A stretch of DNA of 20,614 bases from a virus: UHGV virus genome UHGV-0225178. One strand, written 5' to 3'. This document shows, piece by piece, positions 4,576-15,945 of the stretch. Position numbers and translations under genes: made by a program. A model generated the notes under the pieces. That model did not search any database. It saw nothing but the letters and a program-made list of their open reading frames with translations, and was not told the DNA's origin. Every line of letters starts with the position of its first letter. Within the stretch, counting starts at the first letter, position 1.

Positions 4576-6157
4576 CCAGCATCCCCTTCATTTCCGCAGC
4601 GAACATGGCATCACTGAGCAGCGTCATCAGGCGGAAATCATCCATTTCACGATAAAGGGCAGGCAGGTCTGCCAGCGCATCCGCCAGCCCCCGCGTTCTG
4701 ATGGCATCAATGACCGGCTCCAGCACCGGATCGATGGCCTCCTGTAAGCGGCGGGCAGGCACCGCATCCCCCATGTCGTCCAGTTCATCACGCGGTGTGC
4801 TTTTCGCTTCCGGTAGTCTGGCAGCCAGCGCCGTCTGTTCTGTCTTTTCCTGTTTTTCCGGTGGCGTTTCCCTGTCAGGCATGGCCGGTTCATTACTGCT
4901 CTGACGGACACGGAATATGGCTTCACCGGGCGTGGGCTGTGGAATACCGGTCTGCTCCCGTACCCAGGGATCAGGAATATCCATCCCCGCACTGAGTTGC
5001 ATCACCGCACTGGTTATTTTGGTGATATCCCCCGGTTCTTTGGTCTGGAAACAGATACGCGGCAGGCGACGGATATCAATGGCTTGGGCGGTGTTCAGGG
5101 CATACAGCGGATACACCAGATCGCGGTTCAGGGTTGCAGCCAGCTGGCGTAAATCAGAATCCCTGATTTCCCGGCGCACCTCGTTATGCACCTCACCCAG
5201 CGAGCGCGCGCCTTTGTCTCCGGCTTCCGTGGTCAGCGTGCCGCCGAGTATTGCTTTGGAGATGGAACGCTCCCCCCACGAAATCATGGTTTCAAACGGA
5301 TCGGCCTGACCGTTCGCTGCCGCCTGAAACTCCAGCGACATCCCGGCCGGGATGATCCCGCCTGTACGTCGCCCGATATCCATCACCGCCCGCATCAGGG
5401 CACTTTTCTGCTCCGGTGTTGCCCCGGACGGGTATTTCCCGACCTTCATCGGCAGGCCGTACACCTCCAGAAATTCCGCCAGATCGCGCACGGAATAGTT
5501 TTTGAAAATGAACGGCCAGATAAGCGTCCGGACAAGCCCGGTTGCACCACCATAGCCGGTGCGTGAACGCGACTGATGCACTATCCAGCCAAATGGCTGA
5601 AACGCCACCCCGGAATGGCTGCCGTCACGCAGCCGCAGTTCGCTCAAATCATCCGGGTTAAGGCAGAAATGCCCGCTGTCACGCCAGCGGATGGCTCGGA
5701 TGATGTGCATTTTACCGAGCATCCCGTGCTCAATTTCCATGCAGGAATAGCCCTTCAGGATGGCATCCGTGGCGTCAAACAGCATGGCATCAAACCAGTC
5801 TGTGGAATGCAGATATTCGTCGAGCATTTCCGCGTCCTTTTTCTCATTCGCGCTGGCGTTCGGTGGCGGCTCAATGCTCCATGGCACCCCCTGAATGGCA
5901 AGACGTCGCTTGCCCAGCTCCGCAAAAAGGTGGGTGTCCTTTTCTTCAATGTCAGCCGCCAGATCGGACTGGGCAATCAGATCGCCACGTTCAGCCCCGC
6001 GAAGGCACTGCGCCGCCCGGTTCGGAGTGATACCCGAGGCCGGATGCTCAATATAACGGCTGGCAATCTGCGGAATATCCAGCGCGGCACTCTGCATCTC
6101 CGGATCAAAGGAGAAAGGTTTTCCGTCAAGATCAATTATGCGTCCCACTACCAGCAC
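4559..6157 (-). CDS. H: Portal protein, Mu gpH (gp29)-like
   Basis: 532-aa ORF immediately downstream of the large terminase with a 10-nt overlap; size and position typical of Mu-type portal. Confidence 0.75.
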   Translation of the reverse strand: MLVVGRIIDLDGKPFSFDPEMQSAALDIPQIASRYIEHPASGITPNRAAQCLRGAERGDLIAQSDLAADIEEKDTHLFAELGKRRLAIQGVPWSIEPPPNASANEKKDAEMLDEYLHSTDWFDAMLFDATDAILKGYSCMEIEHGMLGKMHIIRAIRWRDSGHFCLNPDDLSELRLRDGSHSGVAFQPFGWIVHQSRSRTGYGGATGLVRTLIWPFIFKNYSVRDLAEFLEVYGLPMKVGKYPSGATPEQKSALMRAVMDIGRRTGGIIPAGMSLEFQAAANGQADPFETMISWGERSISKAILGGTLTTEAGDKGARSLGEVHNEVRREIRDSDLRQLAATLNRDLVYPLYALNTAQAIDIRRLPRICFQTKEPGDITKITSAVMQLSAGMDIPDPWVREQTGIPQPTPGEAIFRVRQSSNEPAMPDRETPPEKQEKTEQTALAARLPEAKSTPRDELDDMGDAVPARRLQEAIDPVLEPVIDAIRTRGLADALADLPALYREMDDFRLMTLLSDAMFAAEMKGMLDGSGD

Positions 6158-7827
6158 CCCCGATCAAATTCATGATATGCCTCATCGTCATCACGATAAC
6201 CGCCCTCCATTGCCCGCGACCGTTCCGGCAGCGCCTGACAGGCTGATTCATCCAGGATGAAGCCCTCCATATATGACGCCCGGTTTGCCATACAGAGCGC
6301 CACGGCAAAATCACCATGGCGGCGGGCGTTCGCAGCCGTTGCGTTCTGGTCCTTCGTGCGCCCCTTGTCGATTTGCGGGATACCGTTCACCACCTTCACA
6401 TGGCGCAAATCATCAAGCGTGGTCTGATGGCGGGCGACGAGGATATTCTGATCTTCAAACTCGGCTTTCAGTTTTGGCATCCACTCGCCGTACCACTTCG
6501 GCGACAACATCACGCAGTCGATGATGTCCGGGCCAAAGGCCAGCAGTGCGGCCTCTGCCAGATAGCCGCCGTTACCGGTGGCGTCGAACGCCGCACCGAC
6601 CAGCGCCGGAACGCGGGTCAGGATGTACATCATCACCTGTTCCTGCTGGGCATACGGCAGGTTGCGCAGCTCCACGCGAAACACCTCGCGCTTTGCCAGG
6701 AGTTCGGTGATTTCCAGCAGCACAAAGCAGGACAGGTCACCGGTGCGGGCAAAGTCTTCCCCGAAGCTGAAGCGGGAACGGGGATTTAATTTCTCTGTAA
6801 GCGGTTTTAAATGTTCTTCACACCAGATTAAAACTTCCGATTCACGCAGCCATGCGGCACGGCTGATGAAGTCGTCCGGGGCTTCAAACGTCAGAATCGG
6901 GATGTCACGAATCATCGCCATTTCAATAAGCGCGTGAGGAATATAGGCACCGCCGGATTTTTTCGGGATACAGCCGTATTCCTCGTCGGCGTCCTCACGG
7001 GTCGGGGCGTTTTTGTAGAGATCATCACGCCATTTCTGCTCGCTTTCCGGTGACCATTCCTGATCGGTGACGTAACAGATACGACGGTATAATCCGTCCG
7101 CAATGGCATCATCCAGGGTTATGCGGTGGACGCTGTAATCCTTGCGCCCCTCGCGGGCTTCCTGAATGTACTGATTAAACAGATTATCGACGCCGTTATG
7201 CGTGGAAATAATGCGCACGCGTGCGCCCCACATGGTAAGCGCCATTGCCGCCTTGAGAAGCTCATCCAGTGACTCGTGGAACGCGGCTTCATCAATCACC
7301 ACATCTCCCTGAAGGCCGCGCAGGTTTGACGGACGGGAAGACAATGCCTGAATTTTGAATCCACTGTTCGGAAAGCGGATCATGTAGGTCAGAATTTCTT
7401 CTTTTTTATCCCGATCCCAGAATGTCTGCTCATACACATCAGCATCTGCCAGCTGGTTAAAGGCACGGGAGAACAGCGCGCAGGCAGAAATATATTCCAG
7501 CGCCATCTCCTGCTTTGATCCCACATAAAACACATTGCGGCCACCACGACGCTTCGGTTTTGCAGCAGTAATGACGTTACGCCCGGCTTCCGCCCAGGTA
7601 AGACCGGTGCGGCGGGATTTTTCCGCGATGCAGACCTGACTTTCATCCGCAAACCAGCGGGCCTGATAATCCAGAAACACCGGCATATCACCTGGCAAAT
7701 CAAGGCTGTCCGGCACATCCACGCCCAGCATGGCTTTTTCACCGGACAGATCAATTTTGCGGGGAGGTGAAAGTTTTATCAGCCCCGTATCTGGTTTAAT
7801 TTTTTCTTCGCCTGTTCTTTTACTCAT
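6148..7827 (-). CDS. Terminase large subunit, Mu gp28-like
   Basis: 559-aa ORF between the gp27-like gene and the portal. The ATG at 7827 has no obvious SD, but a strongly SD-driven 9-codon mini-ORF (ATG 7849, stop 7820) overlaps it, which suggests translational coupling. Confidence 0.75.
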   Translation of the reverse strand: MSKRTGEEKIKPDTGLIKLSPPRKIDLSGEKAMLGVDVPDSLDLPGDMPVFLDYQARWFADESQVCIAEKSRRTGLTWAEAGRNVITAAKPKRRGGRNVFYVGSKQEMALEYISACALFSRAFNQLADADVYEQTFWDRDKKEEILTYMIRFPNSGFKIQALSSRPSNLRGLQGDVVIDEAAFHESLDELLKAAMALTMWGARVRIISTHNGVDNLFNQYIQEAREGRKDYSVHRITLDDAIADGLYRRICYVTDQEWSPESEQKWRDDLYKNAPTREDADEEYGCIPKKSGGAYIPHALIEMAMIRDIPILTFEAPDDFISRAAWLRESEVLIWCEEHLKPLTEKLNPRSRFSFGEDFARTGDLSCFVLLEITELLAKREVFRVELRNLPYAQQEQVMMYILTRVPALVGAAFDATGNGGYLAEAALLAFGPDIIDCVMLSPKWYGEWMPKLKAEFEDQNILVARHQTTLDDLRHVKVVNGIPQIDKGRTKDQNATAANARRHGDFAVALCMANRASYMEGFILDESACQALPERSRAMEGGYRDDDEAYHEFDRGCW

Positions 7828-10494: not shown

Positions 10495-10917
10495 TCAGAA
10501 AAGCCGGGGCTGCGTGCGTTCCTGATGCAGGCGACGCTGGTTGCGGATAACGGAGTAAATCTGCGTCTCTGACATCTGGTAGTGGCGGCGCAGGGTTTCA
10601 ATTTTTTCGCCCTGGCTCCAGCGGGAAAAAATTTCATTATTGCGCAGTTCGGTGAAAAGGGATTCACCGACCGGGAGATAATAACCACGCCCGCCCATGT
10701 ACCCGGCCTGTGCAGCCGCAACTTTACGGGCAAGCATTCCCGCCTGAGCAGGTTCAATCCCCTGACGGTGCAGTTCAGCACTGATCACATCAACCAGGTC
10801 CCGCAGCGTGCCGGGCCAGTTTTTTTTCAGCTCATCATCAGGAATGTCATCCAGACGGTCAATCAGCGCGTGCAGCTGTTCGCTGTCACCAAACATGCTC
10901 ATCTGTGTTTCAGCCAT
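10495..10917 (-). CDS. Mor/C-family transcriptional activator of late genes
   Basis: 140 aa; C-terminal region aligns by eye with what I recall of Mu Mor (R-N-IF, W, G, EL-R-Y, IY-IR-RR, P-L); GGAGG SD with 5-nt spacer; directly upstream of the endolysin. Cannot tell Mor from C orthology. Confidence 0.75.
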   Translation of the reverse strand: MAETQMSMFGDSEQLHALIDRLDDIPDDELKKNWPGTLRDLVDVISAELHRQGIEPAQAGMLARKVAAAQAGYMGGRGYYLPVGESLFTELRNNEIFSRWSQGEKIETLRRHYQMSETQIYSVIRNQRRLHQERTQPRLF

Positions 10918-10987: not shown

Positions 10988-11497
10988 TTAACGGGGGAAT
11001 GATTTTTCATACAGCCTGCAAACGCGCTCATAACTCATCACTGTATGTGCTGGCATCCCCAGTACAGACAGCATTTTGCGGCGGTGCCAGCGTTTGAGAC
11101 GCTCCAGCACATCAGAGGCCATCGCGGGGTGTTGCTCCAGCCACTGCCAGTTAGCCACACCTTCGCCGCCGTTCTGCGCGGCCGTCTGCGATTTCACCCA
11201 GTGGTTAAGGGCTGTTTCCCCGCCATCAGAGATAAAGCCCTGCCGGTGCATCACCTTCCAGATGGCGCGAATTTTGGCGGTCACCGTACCCGGTTTTAAG
11301 GCCCGGTTAACCGGTTTCTGACGCACTTTAAAACCGCGTTTTTTGAAAACATCCAGCACGCGGGATAACTCATCCGGTGACATATCCCGGCAACTGGTTT
11401 TGCCGGTGGCTTCCAGTAGTACGGATGTGTAGATCTCATCATCCAGGGCAAGCTCGCGCTTTGCCACATGAATAGCGGATATCAGTTTCCCTCTCAT
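10988..11497 (-). CDS. Hypothetical early protein at the Mu gemA (gp16) position
   Basis: 169-aa ORF immediately upstream of the Mor/C-family gene, ATGA-coupled to the upstream gene; assignment by synteny only. Confidence 0.45.
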   Translation of the reverse strand: MRGKLISAIHVAKRELALDDEIYTSVLLEATGKTSCRDMSPDELSRVLDVFKKRGFKVRQKPVNRALKPGTVTAKIRAIWKVMHRQGFISDGGETALNHWVKSQTAAQNGGEGVANWQWLEQHPAMASDVLERLKRWHRRKMLSVLGMPAHTVMSYERVCRLYEKSFPR

Positions 11498-11790
11498 GCT
11501 GTATCAACACTCCTGCTGATATGATAGATATTATTTTCCCGATCGAGCTGAACCCGATACTCCGGAGGAATCACAAAAATATTAAAACCATCATCAGTTT
11601 TTATTCTTGAGTAGTATTCCCCCTTATGATATCTGGCAAGTGCATTAATCAGAGAAGTCGTCGCCAGCCCAATCAGGTATTTTTTATGAAAAATACTGAT
11701 AACTTTCCGGCACAGCCATCGTGTAATGACGAATGCACCGAAAAACGATGTGATATATAAACACCAGAACAACTGCGAACTACTGTCCAT
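11494..11790 (-). CDS. Small membrane-anchored protein (single N-terminal TM helix), low-GC insert
   Basis: 98 aa; TM segment LFWCLYITSFFGAFVITRWL followed by basic residues; AAGGAGA SD 7 nt before ATG; markedly AT-rich versus flanking phage genes. Confidence 0.6.
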   Translation of the reverse strand: MDSSSQLFWCLYITSFFGAFVITRWLCRKVISIFHKKYLIGLATTSLINALARYHKGEYYSRIKTDDGFNIFVIPPEYRVQLDRENNIYHISRSVDTA

Positions 11791-11805
11791 TATCTTTCTC
11801 CTTAT

Positions 11806-11940
11806 TCAGTCTTCTGCGGCATTCGGCACAGTCATCAGGGCTTTCAAATGTATCCGGCTCGCGATTATGAGCCAGATATAACCACCGCCTACATATACTG
11901 ATATTATCGCCTGTTTTAAAAAATGATGCTTCTTAGCCAT
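11806..11940 (-). CDS. Possible 44-aa hydrophobic micro-protein in the low-GC insert
   Basis: ORF found by hand translation (MAKKHHFLKQAIISVYVGGGYIWLIIASRIHLKALMTVPNAAED) with a central hydrophobic segment; weak RBS; below the ORF-track length cutoff. Confidence 0.2.
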   Translation of the reverse strand: MAKKHHFLKQAIISVYVGGGYIWLIIASRIHLKALMTVPNAAED

Positions 11941-11968
11941 CAGAGGGCGCGCCCATCCAGCGGGTAGA

Positions 11969-12301
11969 CTATTCATTTACTTTATCCTCCATACTGGACA
12001 GAATCATCTGTATTAATGTCGGGCGTGGAGATATACGCATTTCATTAAGCGTCTGAAGGGCAGCAACAGCTGCCTGTTTATCGGTGCCTTTGGCAATTTC
12101 CGCAAGAGAATGCACAATCCATAACGGACTTAACGCCACGACTGAATCCAGAATCATGTCATCCATAATAATTTCTGGCACATCCAGTTTGTCATACTCC
12201 TTATCCATAAAAGAAACGATTTTTTCCACATCTTCCGGTTTCATGCCTCCGGCGATGAGAATTTTTCTATATTCATAAGACGATCTTAATTCAATACTCA
12301 T
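11969..12301 (-). CDS. Small acidic soluble protein, low-GC insert
   Basis: Start placed at ATG 12301 (AGGAG with 6-nt spacer) instead of the ORF-track start at 12343; Asp/Glu-rich, no TM segment. Confidence 0.55.
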   Translation of the reverse strand: MSIELRSSYEYRKILIAGGMKPEDVEKIVSFMDKEYDKLDVPEIIMDDMILDSVVALSPLWIVHSLAEIAKGTDKQAAVAALQTLNEMRISPRPTLIQMILSSMEDKVNE

Positions 12302-12339: not shown

Positions 12340-12525
12340 TCATTTATGTTTTCCAGTAATACGGATATATATGTCGATAAGAAGATTCATAATAAACAGG
12401 AAGAGCGACATCCTGATAAAGAACCATATATCTGGCATCATGGACAGATTTCCTGTAACCGAAAATATAAAACCAACCACCCCAACTGGAACGATAATTG
12501 CGAAAAGTATAAGTCGCTTTATCAT
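12340..12525 (-). CDS. 61-aa two-TM hydrophobic mini-protein, low-GC insert
   Basis: Two hydrophobic segments (LILFAIIVPVGVVGFIFSV and FFIRMSLFLFIMNLLIDIYI); ATGA stop-start overlaps on both sides. Confidence 0.5.
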   Translation of the reverse strand: MIKRLILFAIIVPVGVVGFIFSVTGNLSMMPDIWFFIRMSLFLFIMNLLIDIYIRITGKHK

Positions 12526-13073
12526 GGCGTTAACTCCCGTAATACAGCGTCCTCGGCGGTCCGGCGACGGTAATAAACTGCGTGAGCAGAATGTTCAGAT
12601 ATTCCAAACTTTTCGCCAATTTCCCGGAATGACAGACGGCGTGGGTAATCGGAATCACGCAGCGCACGTATAAGACGTACATCATCATCAGATATGCGCG
12701 TGCCGGGGCGTAACTCTCCGCACTTTGTTAATCCGGCACCAATCATTCCTGCCCGACATCTGACAGAATCTTTATTACGTCCGAGATATTCTCCCATTTG
12801 CTGGCAGGTCATTGTTCTGGCATTTTTTCGAATAAACTTATCTTCATCAGGTGTAAATCTGGGGTGTTTATATTTCAGTAACTCCGGGTATGAACTGCGC
12901 AATACACCAGTCCGGTTATATACAGCCCAGACAGTTCTTTTTATTCTGGCAGCAATATCCTTAACCGGGGTGGATGAATAAAGCGCAATCAGCAGCGCAT
13001 CTTCTTCAGGTATCCACGGACGGACATGAGCGGGGGCGCGACCTTTTCGTCCCATGGGTTGTAATTTCATCAT
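12522..13073 (-). CDS. Putative DNA-binding protein with three Myb/SANT-like repeats
   Basis: Three repeats of the pattern [W/F/I]-x-P/S-[E/D]-[E/D]-D followed by an HTH-like segment: WIPEEDALLIAL...IAARIKRTVWAVYNR, FTPDEDKFIRK...MGEYLGRNKDSVRCR, ISDDDVRLIRAL...FREIGEKFGISEHSAHAVYYRR. Confidence 0.55.
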   Translation of the reverse strand: MMKLQPMGRKGRAPAHVRPWIPEEDALLIALYSSTPVKDIAARIKRTVWAVYNRTGVLRSSYPELLKYKHPRFTPDEDKFIRKNARTMTCQQMGEYLGRNKDSVRCRAGMIGAGLTKCGELRPGTRISDDDVRLIRALRDSDYPRRLSFREIGEKFGISEHSAHAVYYRRRTAEDAVLRELTP

Positions 13074-13076
13074 GCA

Positions 13077-13592
13077 TCACCCCCTGACTCGCTTTTCAGC
13101 AGCATAAAACTCATCAGACAGAATTTCGGTCATTTTCCGTTTTGCGGAATCATCTTCGCACTGAAGATAAATCACATTGTCAACGCAGAACCAGTTCACG
13201 GGACCATACAATATTGCTGAGAAGTCAATGCCCAGCCAGAACAACAGGGCATCGGTTCTGGCATACGTGACGGGCGAATATTCACGCCACAGAATGTTCA
13301 GTTCATCAGAGGCAACACGCAGGGTTTTAGGGATACGTGATGTGCGCGGCGTGCAGCTCCAGCCATTCGACGCAGTCGGTTTTCTCCATAAGTCGCGATG
13401 AAAAGGATATTTGTCATCCATAAAGCGCAGCCCCTTAAAACAAAATCCACTGATACCGGATACAAATACCGACCGGCACGCAACATTCAGCACGGCCTCA
13501 AGGCGTTTTGCCTCATCCTTAACTTTCTGGCAGTCCTGCTGGTATTTTTGCCACGCAGCCAGCGCGGAAGGGTTTGATGTTTTAAAGAACAT
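13077..13592 (-). CDS. Hypothetical early-region protein
   Basis: 171-aa ORF; 3-nt gap downstream and TAATG overlap upstream indicate the same operon; no recognised motif. Confidence 0.55.
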   Translation of the reverse strand: MFFKTSNPSALAAWQKYQQDCQKVKDEAKRLEAVLNVACRSVFVSGISGFCFKGLRFMDDKYPFHRDLWRKPTASNGWSCTPRTSRIPKTLRVASDELNILWREYSPVTYARTDALLFWLGIDFSAILYGPVNWFCVDNVIYLQCEDDSAKRKMTEILSDEFYAAEKRVRG

Positions 13593-14125
13593 TACGCCAC
13601 CTCCGCAGATATCCCGGCAGGCGCTGCTGTCCGGTCAACAATCAGGTAGCGCAGAACACGCGCGGTGATATTCCAGCCGCTTAAACCGCAGATAATGACA
13701 CCCAGGCGAATGTCGATATACGCCATCACAAACTGGGGTACGCCTTCTTTCATGGCCTGCTCATCAACTTCAGCCACCACATAAACGGTTCCACAGGTCA
13801 GAACGCCCTGAGCAAATTCCCACGCCATCGACGGAATATCATGCCCCTCAATCCACGGCAGGGATTTTCTGAAGCTGCACCACTGAACATCATCAGCCGC
13901 ACATTCCTGGCTGCATTTGCGACGAACCGGCTGCACCGGGCGGGGACGCGGAATATCATAAAAACCGTTACATTCCGTCAGCACGCCTGCATCAACCGCA
14001 TCACGCAGAAAATAAACCATGGAGGATGGCGGCATATTCATTTTTTCAGCCAGTACACCGCAGGTCAGACGTCCGTAAATACTCAGCCAGTTTTTAACCC
14101 CTTCAAGCACTTTTGCATCAATCAT
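13592..14125 (-). CDS. Hypothetical early-region protein with probable N-terminal winged-helix and Cys-containing C-terminal region
   Basis: 177-aa ORF; N-terminal segment resembles an HTH; several Cys residues downstream; coupled to neighbours. Confidence 0.55.
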   Translation of the reverse strand: MIDAKVLEGVKNWLSIYGRLTCGVLAEKMNMPPSSMVYFLRDAVDAGVLTECNGFYDIPRPRPVQPVRRKCSQECAADDVQWCSFRKSLPWIEGHDIPSMAWEFAQGVLTCGTVYVVAEVDEQAMKEGVPQFVMAYIDIRLGVIICGLSGWNITARVLRYLIVDRTAAPAGISAEVA

Positions 14126-14128
14126 GAA

Positions 14129-14671
14129 TTATTCCTCCGTAAGCGCCACATATTCAGAATGTTTAATTTCCTGGCATTCTTCAGGAATACACCCGTTTAT
14201 TTCCCTGCCATAAGCGCCTACTTTAAACACCACACACAGAGCATCACGGGAGAGCGACGGGGTCCACCAGGAGTCCGTGTTAAACATGGAGGGGATTCTC
14301 ATTACCCCCAGCTTTTCACAGAGCCAGACAAGGAAATCAGGATGTTTTCTTAAATCGCGTTCAGCGGCTTCAACCATTGCGGCAATCGCCGGTCCTTCAG
14401 GGCATAACTCATCAGGTCTGGCAATAAAGCACTGTCCGTCCCCGATAAAAGCCACATCATCGCGCTTACGCCAGCCCGCAGGCAGAGCACCGGCAAAATA
14501 AAACTCACTGACTCTGTCCATGGCGAACGGCTTTAAGCGCAATCCGGCAGCGCCTGTATTTTTCAGTAATGCCCGAAGAATACTGTTGCGTAGCGGTAAA
14601 ACAGTCTGTTGATATTTGGTGAAATATTTATTTGTCTGCACACGGTCTAATTTGAAATAAAAATATGCCAT
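14129..14671 (-). CDS. Hypothetical early-region protein
   Basis: 180-aa ORF; AAGGAA SD about 9 nt upstream of the ATG at 14671; first gene after gam. Confidence 0.55.
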   Translation of the reverse strand: MAYFYFKLDRVQTNKYFTKYQQTVLPLRNSILRALLKNTGAAGLRLKPFAMDRVSEFYFAGALPAGWRKRDDVAFIGDGQCFIARPDELCPEGPAIAAMVEAAERDLRKHPDFLVWLCEKLGVMRIPSMFNTDSWWTPSLSRDALCVVFKVGAYGREINGCIPEECQEIKHSEYVALTEE

Positions 14672-14768: not shown

Positions 14769-15299
14769 TTATTTATTCAGTCCGGCGTCCTGTTCAAAAG
14801 GCTCGACATAAAAACTTTCAGCGCCTTTATTCACCTTAATACCGGCAATGCCTTTCACTGCATCCGGCTCCGCCAGGACGGCTTCCTTGTTCACTTCCTC
14901 TTTCGTGCGGATGAATCGCTCAAGCCCCATACGGCGCAGCATTTCAATCACACCTTCCACATCACGGCTGACGCTGCATGATGGCGTTCCCAGCCGCCAT
15001 GACACCGTTCCGGTGGTCAGATTGACTGTTTTGGTTTTGCCGCCGTTCGTCAGCTCATCACGGTTGGTTTTGCACCAGTCCTGAATCCCTTTAAAAAGCA
15101 CTTTGATTTGCTTTTTAAGATTTTCAATCTGCGGCGTATAACGGGCGGTGATTTCAGCCACCTCGTCATTCATTGCCGTTTCCAGGCGCAGCGCCTCTCG
15201 CTGAATATCGCCCAGGGTGCGGATATCACGGCTGACTTCTTCGCGGGTCTGCGGTGCGGCCTCGGCTGCGGCCTTTAATTTTGTAACGCGTTTTGCCAT
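14769..15299 (-). CDS. gam: Host-nuclease inhibitor Gam (Ku-like DNA-end-binding protein)
   Basis: 176 aa; closely matches my recollection of Mu Gam (LETAMNDEVAEITARY, ANRDELTNGGKTKT, FIRTKEEVNKEA, VEPFEQDAG); AAGGA SD upstream. Confidence 0.85.
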   Translation of the reverse strand: MAKRVTKLKAAAEAAPQTREEVSRDIRTLGDIQREALRLETAMNDEVAEITARYTPQIENLKKQIKVLFKGIQDWCKTNRDELTNGGKTKTVNLTTGTVSWRLGTPSCSVSRDVEGVIEMLRRMGLERFIRTKEEVNKEAVLAEPDAVKGIAGIKVNKGAESFYVEPFEQDAGLNK

Positions 15300-15310
15300 T
15301 TTGTTTTTCC

Positions 15311-15604
15311 TTATTGCAATGTATCTGGTGCGTTCTGCAAAGAACGGCGCTCAATGCTGCTTTTCACCCCCATAGCCTGCATGGAACCCTGAAGTTCATC
15401 TGTCAGAAACTGAATAATTGTGGGGCTGTGATATTTAAGAATTTGAGCATAAACATCACAGGGTCCTGTCGGTCTGTTCTCCGTATCACGTTCGATTTTT
15501 ACAGTGGCAGTAACCCCCTCCGTGATTTCCTGACTATCATTACCGGCTGGCTTTACTTCATGCATTACGTGGTTAAATTCAAAAATAACGCGTACTTTGC
15601 TCAT
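15311..15604 (-). CDS. Small hypothetical early protein upstream of gam
   Basis: Start placed at internal ATG 15604 (MSKVRVIFEF...), preceded by GAGGA; the ORF-track start at 15703 would overlap the upstream gene. Confidence 0.5.
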   Translation of the reverse strand: MSKVRVIFEFNHVMHEVKPAGNDSQEITEGVTATVKIERDTENRPTGPCDVYAQILKYHSPTIIQFLTDELQGSMQAMGVKSSIERRSLQNAPDTLQ

Positions 15605-15678
15605 CCTGTTGTCCTCATTTCGTCTTAATAACTCATCCGGCGTCTGACCTGATGACAGAGCCGAACCATGAAGTAACT

Positions 15679-15945
15679 TCATACTTCCCAGTAGACCGTA
15701 CATCCGCTTATGCGGGTGGCTTTTACACGGCGGCGCAGGCCATTGGTCTGAACAGTGATTTCAATTTCACCGGTTCCCTTAACTTCGTTTACCGGCGGCG
15801 TGGTTTTCAGGGCATAACGTTGTGGGTAGCGTTTGCTGCGCTCCAGCACTGCACCGGCAAGTTCAGTCAGACGGCGTGCGCTGTTCAGGGAGTCGAATAA
15901 ATTCATTTTGTTACCGCAGGATTGCATATTCATATAACACCTCAT
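15679..15945 (-). CDS. Small hypothetical early protein (start uncertain)
   Basis: 88-aa ORF with several in-frame candidate ATGs (15945, 15933, 15927, 15906) and no strong SD. Confidence 0.4.
   Translation of the reverse strand: MRCYMNMQSCGNKMNLFDSLNSARRLTELAGAVLERSKRYPQRYALKTTPPVNEVKGTGEIEITVQTNGLRRRVKATRISGCTVYWEV

Follow-up and report, generated by a model that had tools for sequence, protein, structure and literature searches.

The gene at 12522-13073 on the minus strand of the virus genome UHGV-0225178 encodes a protein of 183 amino acids built from three helix-turn-helix (HTH) units that arose through internal duplication. The window, i.e. the whole stretch of 20,614 nucleotides analysed here, is a Mu-like Escherichia coli prophage whose forward direction corresponds to the minus strand, and the gene lies in its early operon, between gam and gemA/mor. 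The most fitting description of the product is that of a divergent Myb-like (homeodomain-like) protein of prokaryotic/viral type with tandem HTHs. We consider it rather probable that it is a monomeric, sequence-specific protein that binds double-stranded DNA with its three linked HTH units on one long asymmetric site, and that it serves as an accessory early regulator. The identification at domain level was already available: the product is 99 % identical to RefSeq WP_000977058.1, named 'SANT/Myb-like DNA-binding domain-containing protein'. New here are the demonstration that the protein arose by three-fold duplication, the arm and linker motifs peculiar to the family, its occurrence in both Mu-like and P2-like phages and the concentration of allelic differences in the third helices.

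A preliminary description of this DNA, made from the letters alone, had proposed three consecutive Myb/SANT-like repeats. The open reading frame (ORF) was found in the ORF list exactly as claimed there, and the motifs that had been quoted were all recovered: WIPEEDALL spans residues 20-28, FTPDEDKFIRK residues 73-83 and ISDDDVRLIRAL residues 127-138. With the single sequence the repeats were not significant, as Smith-Waterman alignment of the three segments against shuffled sequences gave p values of 0.14, 0.27 and 0.04. Profiles built from 14 close orthologs aligned the first two units (R1 and R2) in hhalign with an E value of 5e-7. With alignment A2, which contains 29 orthologs down to 30 % identity, the profile-profile match between R1 and R2 reached E 2.4e-17 (98.9 %), that between R2 and the third unit (R3) E 2.3e-7 (93.5 %), in register from the acidic start and with a 5-residue insertion in R3, and that between R1 and R3 E 5.6e-6. 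A pooled R1/R2 profile matched the R3 profile with an hhalign E value of 2.6e-7. AlphaFold2, run on the 14-sequence alignment, gave three three-helix units and no beta strands, with a mean pLDDT of 77.8, a pTM of 0.42 and low confidence only at residues 1-13 and 119-125. The three tandem HTH repeats were thus confirmed both by the ortholog profiles and by structure prediction, and the model suggests beads on a string, i.e. three three-helix units on flexible linkers. The gene and the parts of its product are as follows:

12522..13073, minus strand: gene of the tandem Myb-like/HTH protein, complete coding sequence of 183 amino acids plus stop codon, ATG start, from the ORF list
13017..13073, minus strand: N-terminal basic arm, residues 1-19 (MMKLQPMGRKGRAPAHVRP), conserved in orthologs and predicted to be disordered
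12900..13016, minus strand: unit R1, residues 20-58, Myb-type three-helix HTH with helices at 22-31, 37-43 and 48-58
12858..12899, minus strand: linker 1, residues 59-72 (RSSYPELLKYKHPR), basic
12741..12857, minus strand: unit R2, residues 73-111, Myb-type three-helix HTH with helices at 75-84, 90-97 and 101-111
12690..12740, minus strand: linker 2, residues 112-128, predicted to be flexible, with K117-x-G119-(D/E) as the best-conserved motif of the family
12525..12689, minus strand: unit R3 and C-terminal helix, residues 129-183, diverged HTH with helices at 129-140, 149-156 and 160-169, and a fourth helix at 173-181

Among the orthologs the N-terminal arm follows the consensus L-x-P-M-G-x-P-G-x-C-P-A-H-x-R-x-W. 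The arm is conserved in alignments A1 and A2 and has a dN/dS of 0.0-0.13; its residues 1-13, like residues 119-125 of linker 2, have pLDDT values below 50 in the AlphaFold2 model. W20, K117, G119 and D129, the last in the R3 region, are the only invariant set across the 29 orthologs, and R46 in R1 is nearly invariant. R2 carries the motif FIRxN..TMT...A..LGR and is matched at residues 74-108 by PHROG 14101 ('transcriptional regulator', 1e-7), and in the R3 region the motifs LTFREIGEKF and C-terminal LLP are conserved. The length, the three-unit layout, the arm, the KxGD linker and the C-terminal LLP are all kept in orthologs down to 30-45 % identity. The isoelectric point (pI) is 10.0 for the window protein and 9.2-10.3 for the 29 orthologs, all of which are basic.

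Units 1 and 2 have an affinity to Myb. The units are three-helix bundles in which helices 2 and 3 form the HTH, which is the Myb/SANT fold. When alignment A4, consisting of units 1 and 2 of the orthologs only, was used as a unit profile against the PDB, c-Myb was matched at E 8.9e-10 in an alignment over all three of its repeats, followed by Cbp2 (2LVS) at 4.9e-9, by v-Myb, Trichomonas vaginalis Myb3 and B-Myb at ~1-2e-8 and, more weakly, by GcrA at 0.011. The best solved structure for the whole protein was 2LVS, both by sequence (E 0.014) and in Foldseek. The profile of unit 3 found only generic HTHs in the PDB, namely a designed repeat protein, the N-terminal domain of CENP-B, region 4 of sigma-E and Lrp HTHs. 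Unit 3 is only remotely Myb-like and nearer to generic HTHs (sigma-70 region 4, the AsnC-type HTH and the CENP-B N-terminal domain), and the Myb/SANT part of the preliminary description thus held by profile and fold for the first two repeats but not in the same sense for the third.

The hallmark of Myb repeats is a set of three regularly spaced tryptophans (W-x18-19-W-x18-19-W) which form the hydrophobic core. Of this triad the phage protein has the first position only, as the invariant W20 in unit 1 and as F73 in unit 2; opposite the second and third tryptophans the unit consensus has residues that are not aromatic, and W49 of the window allele is not conserved. Pfam Myb_DNA-binding (PF00249), a search for which had been proposed as a check, gave 14 bits (E 0.057) with the window protein alone, compared to a curated threshold of 24.4, whereas 16 of the 29 orthologs matched at E <= 0.01 (best 1e-7) and one, P0024, scored exactly 24.4 bits. 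Membership of the Myb/SANT group is therefore supported at the level of fold and family profile, while the triad and the single-sequence Pfam threshold failed.

Most of the orthologs are named 'AsnC family protein' in RefSeq/NCBI, and some records have 'DNA-binding protein'. AsnC/Lrp proteins consist of an N-terminal winged HTH and a C-terminal RAM domain, an alpha-beta sandwich for ligand binding and oligomerisation. This identity was rejected, since no AsnC_trans_reg (RAM) domain was found, the model is all-helical without strands and the match to HTH_AsnC-type (19.1 bits compared to a threshold of 27, E 0.0011, residues 130-164) is sub-threshold. The name is a misnomer and looks like an over-extension of that match. 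Members of the sigma-70 family combine region 2, which binds the -10 element and core polymerase, with region 4. With no region 2, only region-4-like HTH matches and units 1 and 2 of Myb type, the protein was rejected as a sigma factor. It was also rejected as a GcrA ortholog, as no sigma-interaction domain was identified and the query had no match to Pfam GcrA (PF07750).

The architecture had been thought unusual for bacteria and phages, a view that has to be given up. RefSeq already uses the SANT/Myb-like name, PHROG 323 ('transcriptional regulator') matches residues 2-182 at 1.2e-51, and an exhaustive profile search returned 4393 representative proteins at E <= 1e-3, many of them 300-880 amino acids long with 3-9 matched stretches. 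Numerous phage proteins in BFVD share this tandem fold, and their structural matches have E values of 1e-5 to 1e-3. In two distant array proteins, P0020 and P0121, the unit is fused to an N-terminal ResIII/Helicase_C helicase, in mycobacteriophages it forms part of a DNA methyltransferase gene or lies in regions annotated as HNH endonuclease, and related array proteins match Pfam GcrA at up to 8e-27. The metagenomic proteins P0020, P0121, P0026 and P0048 are very long, consist of 5-9 tandem Myb-like units and score 55-148 bits on Pfam Myb_DNA-binding, on which distant array proteins reach 140-148 bits. One of the four comes from a Propionibacteriaceae metagenome-assembled genome. A literature search for Myb-like proteins of phages or of Mu-like prophages turned up nothing of relevance and no experimental work on the family.

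Like the R1R2R3 region of c-Myb, the phage protein has three tandem three-helix units of ~50 residues which start with W-[ST]-x-E-E-D and contain ...IA..L.GRT....R. Unlike in Myb, the stretch from helix 1 to helix 2 is 3-4 residues shorter, one of the three tryptophans is present and unit 3 is not recognisably Myb. The protein is prokaryotic-viral, has no trans-activation domain and possesses an additional conserved N-terminal arm and the KxGD linker. In its layout it resembles the Cbp1/Cbp2 proteins (2LVS), which are small prokaryotic proteins that contain nothing but duplicated HTH units, three of them in Cbp1 and two in Cbp2, with basic linkers in between. Cbp1's three HTH domains originated by duplication and are aligned 5' to 3' along a repeat of ~25 bp (PMC10883916), and in Cbp2, which has two HTHs and a basic linker, the linker is protected by DNA (PMC3597662). 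Cbp1 and Cbp2 are, however, archaeal chromosomal proteins that bind CRISPR DNA repeats and occur in genomes with long CRISPR arrays, and they lack the KxGD motif and the arm, whereas the protein described here shares ~22 % sequence identity with Cbp and is encoded by an early gene of Enterobacterales phages, with nothing that links it to CRISPR repeats. GcrA of Caulobacter (PF07750; PDB 5YIU) acts on DNA as a monomer (PMC9976885). GcrA is like the phage protein in the unit profile match given above, but it has one unit and a C-terminal sigma-70-interacting domain instead of three units, and its preference for methylated GANTC cannot be assumed for the phage protein. Other phage tandem-HTH proteins (PHROG 323, the Myb-like proteins of phage Goslar and the 'DNA binding protein' of phage Shae_phiSM) are of the same family or fold, with functions that are likewise only predicted and give no lead on mechanism; the PHROG 323 profile is longer (319 positions) and includes proteins with more units.

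The gene is a translationally coupled member of a polycistronic operon, as judged from its junctions and from promoter and terminator scans. The stop codon TGA of the upstream gene (13079-13077) lies 3 nt ahead of the gene start, and the stop codon of the gene itself overlaps the ATG of the next small ORF. Its ribosome-binding site, a good Shine-Dalgarno sequence, overlaps the end of the upstream gene:

13080..13085, minus strand: Shine-Dalgarno sequence AGGGGG, 6 nt 5' of the ATG at 13073, read from the sequence

A scan around the gene found no excess of promoter-like sites, and the excess of terminators was small and unconvincing (5 found, 2.0 +/- 1.5 expected). The protein is therefore probably translated from a polycistronic early transcript. 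The dN/dS ratio between two allele classes of the gene is 0.25, which shows that it is a functional coding gene under purifying selection.

In a near-identical RefSeq prophage the gene order is transposase, AAA ATPase (B), five small ORFs, Gam, three hypothetical genes, the tandem HTH gene (there under the SANT/Myb-like name), small ORFs, gp16/GemA, Mor and lysozyme. DNA matches to the gene were found in 200 of 5426 complete E. coli genomes. The preliminary description could not place the architecture in the Mu early region, and Mu itself indeed has no homolog: when 50,697 phage records were searched by tblastn, neither Mu nor D108 was among the 25 hits, and the only full-length hits were in Mu-like inserts of two Stx phages and in a P2-like Citrobacter phage. 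The latter, Shae_phiSM, has a full-length ortholog of 36 % identity in its early operon, annotated 'DNA binding protein'. In P2-like phages (Peduoviridae) full-length orthologs of 35-46 % identity are located between cox and the replication endonuclease gene. The Mu-like and P2-like loci have no neighbouring gene in common, and the gene is therefore an autonomous accessory early gene. By record name the orthologs come from E. coli, Salmonella, Hafniaceae and Citrobacter; profile scans of genome contigs with alignments A1 and A3 detected no relatives, and thus the taxonomic spread rests on these source names.

Two allele classes of the gene occur in E. coli Mu-like prophages, with ~99 % and ~72 % amino acid identity to the window protein, in flanks that are 93-99 % identical. 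The drop in nucleotide identity is confined to 12550-13000. Synonymous divergence (dS) between the alleles is ~0.6, compared to ~0.1 in neighbouring genes, which together with the dN/dS of 0.25 indicates an old allele exchanged by recombination; recent positive selection was rejected as the cause of the divergence on the same values. The differences are concentrated in helix 3, where the identity between alleles is 48 %, 55 % and 27 % in units 1, 2 and 3, respectively. For helices 1 and 2 the identity is 67-100 % across the three units, and 86-100 % if helix 2 of unit 2 (67 %) is set aside. In total 18 of 32 helix-3 positions differ, compared to 30-34 of 151 others (Fisher p ~1e-4). Such a pattern is expected if helix 3 reads DNA and the specificities of the alleles differ, but it is suggestive only, because no other helix of an HTH is as exposed to solvent as helix 3, whose variability could simply reflect relaxed constraint.

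The gene mor (window 10495-10917) is dimorphic in a like manner, with 78 % nucleotide identity between lineages that agree at 93-99 % in their remaining early genes. Mor type 1 occurs with 8 of 9 class A alleles and ~3 of 13 class B alleles of the tandem HTH gene, in a sample that is small and not phylogenetically independent, and gemA, which lies between the two genes, is undifferentiated. The association could be due to population structure or to functional coupling. A second divergent patch, of 72-86 % identity to related prophages in surroundings of 93-99 %, lies at window 15250-15700, among the small ORFs from the B gene to gam, and occurs in both allele classes.

Several lines of evidence point to DNA as the ligand. 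The fusion partners of the unit (helicases, DNA methyltransferase, HNH annotations) are settings of a DNA-targeting module, and the basic pI of all orthologs fits nucleic-acid binding, and with it the DNA-binding regulator suggested in the preliminary description. The charge is supportive only. The protein would bind double-stranded DNA as a monomer; along one long asymmetric site, each unit would place its third helix in the next segment of the major groove, in the manner of c-Myb R1R2R3 and Cbp1. The N-terminal arm and the KxGD linker may add contacts to the groove or backbone, or may clamp the units together. The early operon from which it is made belongs to the Mu-like prophage here and to P2-like phages in other enterobacteria; as it is expressed early in two types of temperate phage, its most likely role is that of an accessory early regulator, directed at genes of the phage or the host, which acts after induction or infection.

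Some observations weigh against this proposal. The case for DNA binding is indirect, as it is for monomeric binding of a composite site, for the regulatory role and for the target. The query alone falls under every Pfam and NCBIfam threshold, and the relative arrangement of the three units was not confidently predicted (pTM 0.42). SANT domains have the same fold and bind proteins rather than DNA, and the exposure of helix 3 offers another explanation of the allelic pattern. A search for a candidate binding site, in the form of flanking non-coding DNA that varies together with the allele class, found none, the exceptions being a partial association with mor and with one small ORF.

Other explanations of the same data were considered. 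It is unlikely that the protein binds RNA polymerase or mimics sigma, with unit 3 docking on the beta-flap or the core or competing with sigma region 4, and that it redirects early host transcription as an appropriator, an anti-sigma-like factor or a minimal phage sigma. This would be in line with the matches of 20 of 29 orthologs to Pfam Sigma70_r4 (best 4e-10) and of 18 of 29 to Sigma70_r4_2 (best 5e-11), and with those of the query at residues 145-164 to Sigma70_r4 (E 0.15) and TIGR02937 (E 0.11). GcrA, a close structural match for one unit, works via sigma-70 (PMC5887438). However, Sigma70_r4 models cross-match almost any HTH and the same proteins match a dozen other HTH families, the score on TIGR02937 is 12.1 bits compared to a cut-off of 42.9, and the Foldseek matches to sigma factors have probabilities of 0.15-0.28 and a TM of ~0.2. 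Region 2 is lacking, and the homology of units 1 and 2 is with one another and with Myb, not with sigma region 2. No counterpart of the sigma-interacting part of GcrA was identified, and the arm, the three units and the linkers account for residues 1-183 save for the helix at 173-181. It is likewise improbable that the repeats form a SANT-type protein-interaction module that binds a host or phage protein (a nucleoid-associated, defence or replication factor) and not DNA, which corresponds to the other suggestion of the preliminary description, an inhibitor of a host DNA-associated factor. A partner could recognise the conserved and apparently disordered arm and KxGD linker as short linear motifs, and the presence of the gene in two unrelated phage types is as expected for a host-directed accessory factor. 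Yet all orthologs are strongly basic, the profile matches are to DNA-binding Myb repeats and Cbp2 and not to SANT proteins, the fusion partners of the unit are DNA enzymes, and PADLOC, run on the protein and on six neighbours, gave no match that would link it to known defence systems.

A further possibility is that the gene is what remains of a mobile nuclease, namely the DNA-binding module of a homing endonuclease or methylase on its own after loss of the catalytic domain, carried as a mobile cassette with little or no role for the phage. Weak PHROG matches to endonuclease families, Pfam HNH_repeat in 2 of 29 orthologs, phage 'Endonuclease' proteins among the BFVD matches, the allele replacement limited to the gene inside near-identical flanks and the scattered occurrence among Mu-like and P2-like phages would all be consistent with such an origin. 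We regard it as very unlikely, as neither a nuclease domain nor a nuclease remnant is present (Pfam, AlphaFold2) and the gene is translationally coupled within the early operon, while the dN/dS value and the conservation of length, layout, arm, KxGD linker and LLP down to 30-45 % identity speak for a function that is under selection in the protein's present form. There is also a rather small chance that the protein is a specificity-variable monomeric reader of long DNA sites, with recognition helices swapped between alleles like phage immunity specificities and each allele class directed to a different site in a competing mobile or repeated host element. By analogy with Cbp1/Cbp2, its targets could even include CRISPR or other repeat arrays. 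If so, the protein would be a phage tool for inter-element conflict and not a housekeeping regulator.

Apart from gam, the one recognised gene among the neighbours scanned, PHROGs gave only families of unknown function. Upstream, at window 13077-14671, are three conserved early ORFs of 171, 177 and 180 amino acids (PHROGs 2314, 1949 and 2260, all of unknown function), which always precede the gene in Mu-like prophages, are absent from P2-like loci and have no PADLOC match. The zone just downstream is cassette-variable: a hydrophobic ORF of 61 amino acids at window 12340-12525 is replaced by two other hypothetical genes in an otherwise 93 %-identical prophage (L001, 9549-10225), and a 98-amino-acid ORF at window 11494-11976 has variants of 49 % identity. 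Downstream of the ortholog, P2-like phages carry ~330 bp of non-coding DNA that is 96 % conserved and contains the Rfam families isrK (66-69 bits) and C4 antisense RNA (82-84 bits), located at 5265-5339 and 5375-5462 in L002 and at 6625-6699 and 6735-6822 in L048. In the DNA alignment of this stretch, apparently compensatory substitutions between phages can be made out by eye. The repeats 3' of the P2-like orthologs were considered as protein-binding iterons and rejected, as they are the isrK and C4 RNAs. In the Mu-like window Rfam had no match at all.

As it stands, the finding is a sound refinement of annotation rather than a surprise, and it corrects the wrong database label 'AsnC family protein'. 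If DNA binding is true, the protein would be a compact bacterial/phage counterpart of Myb R1R2R3 and of archaeal Cbp1, in which a monomer of 183 residues reads a long asymmetric site. Its natural alleles, which differ mainly in the presumed recognition helices, would then provide a convenient system for studying the specificity of tandem HTHs and possibly for their engineering, and a role would be given to a conserved accessory early gene of Mu-like and P2-like prophages in E. coli, Salmonella, Citrobacter and Hafnia.

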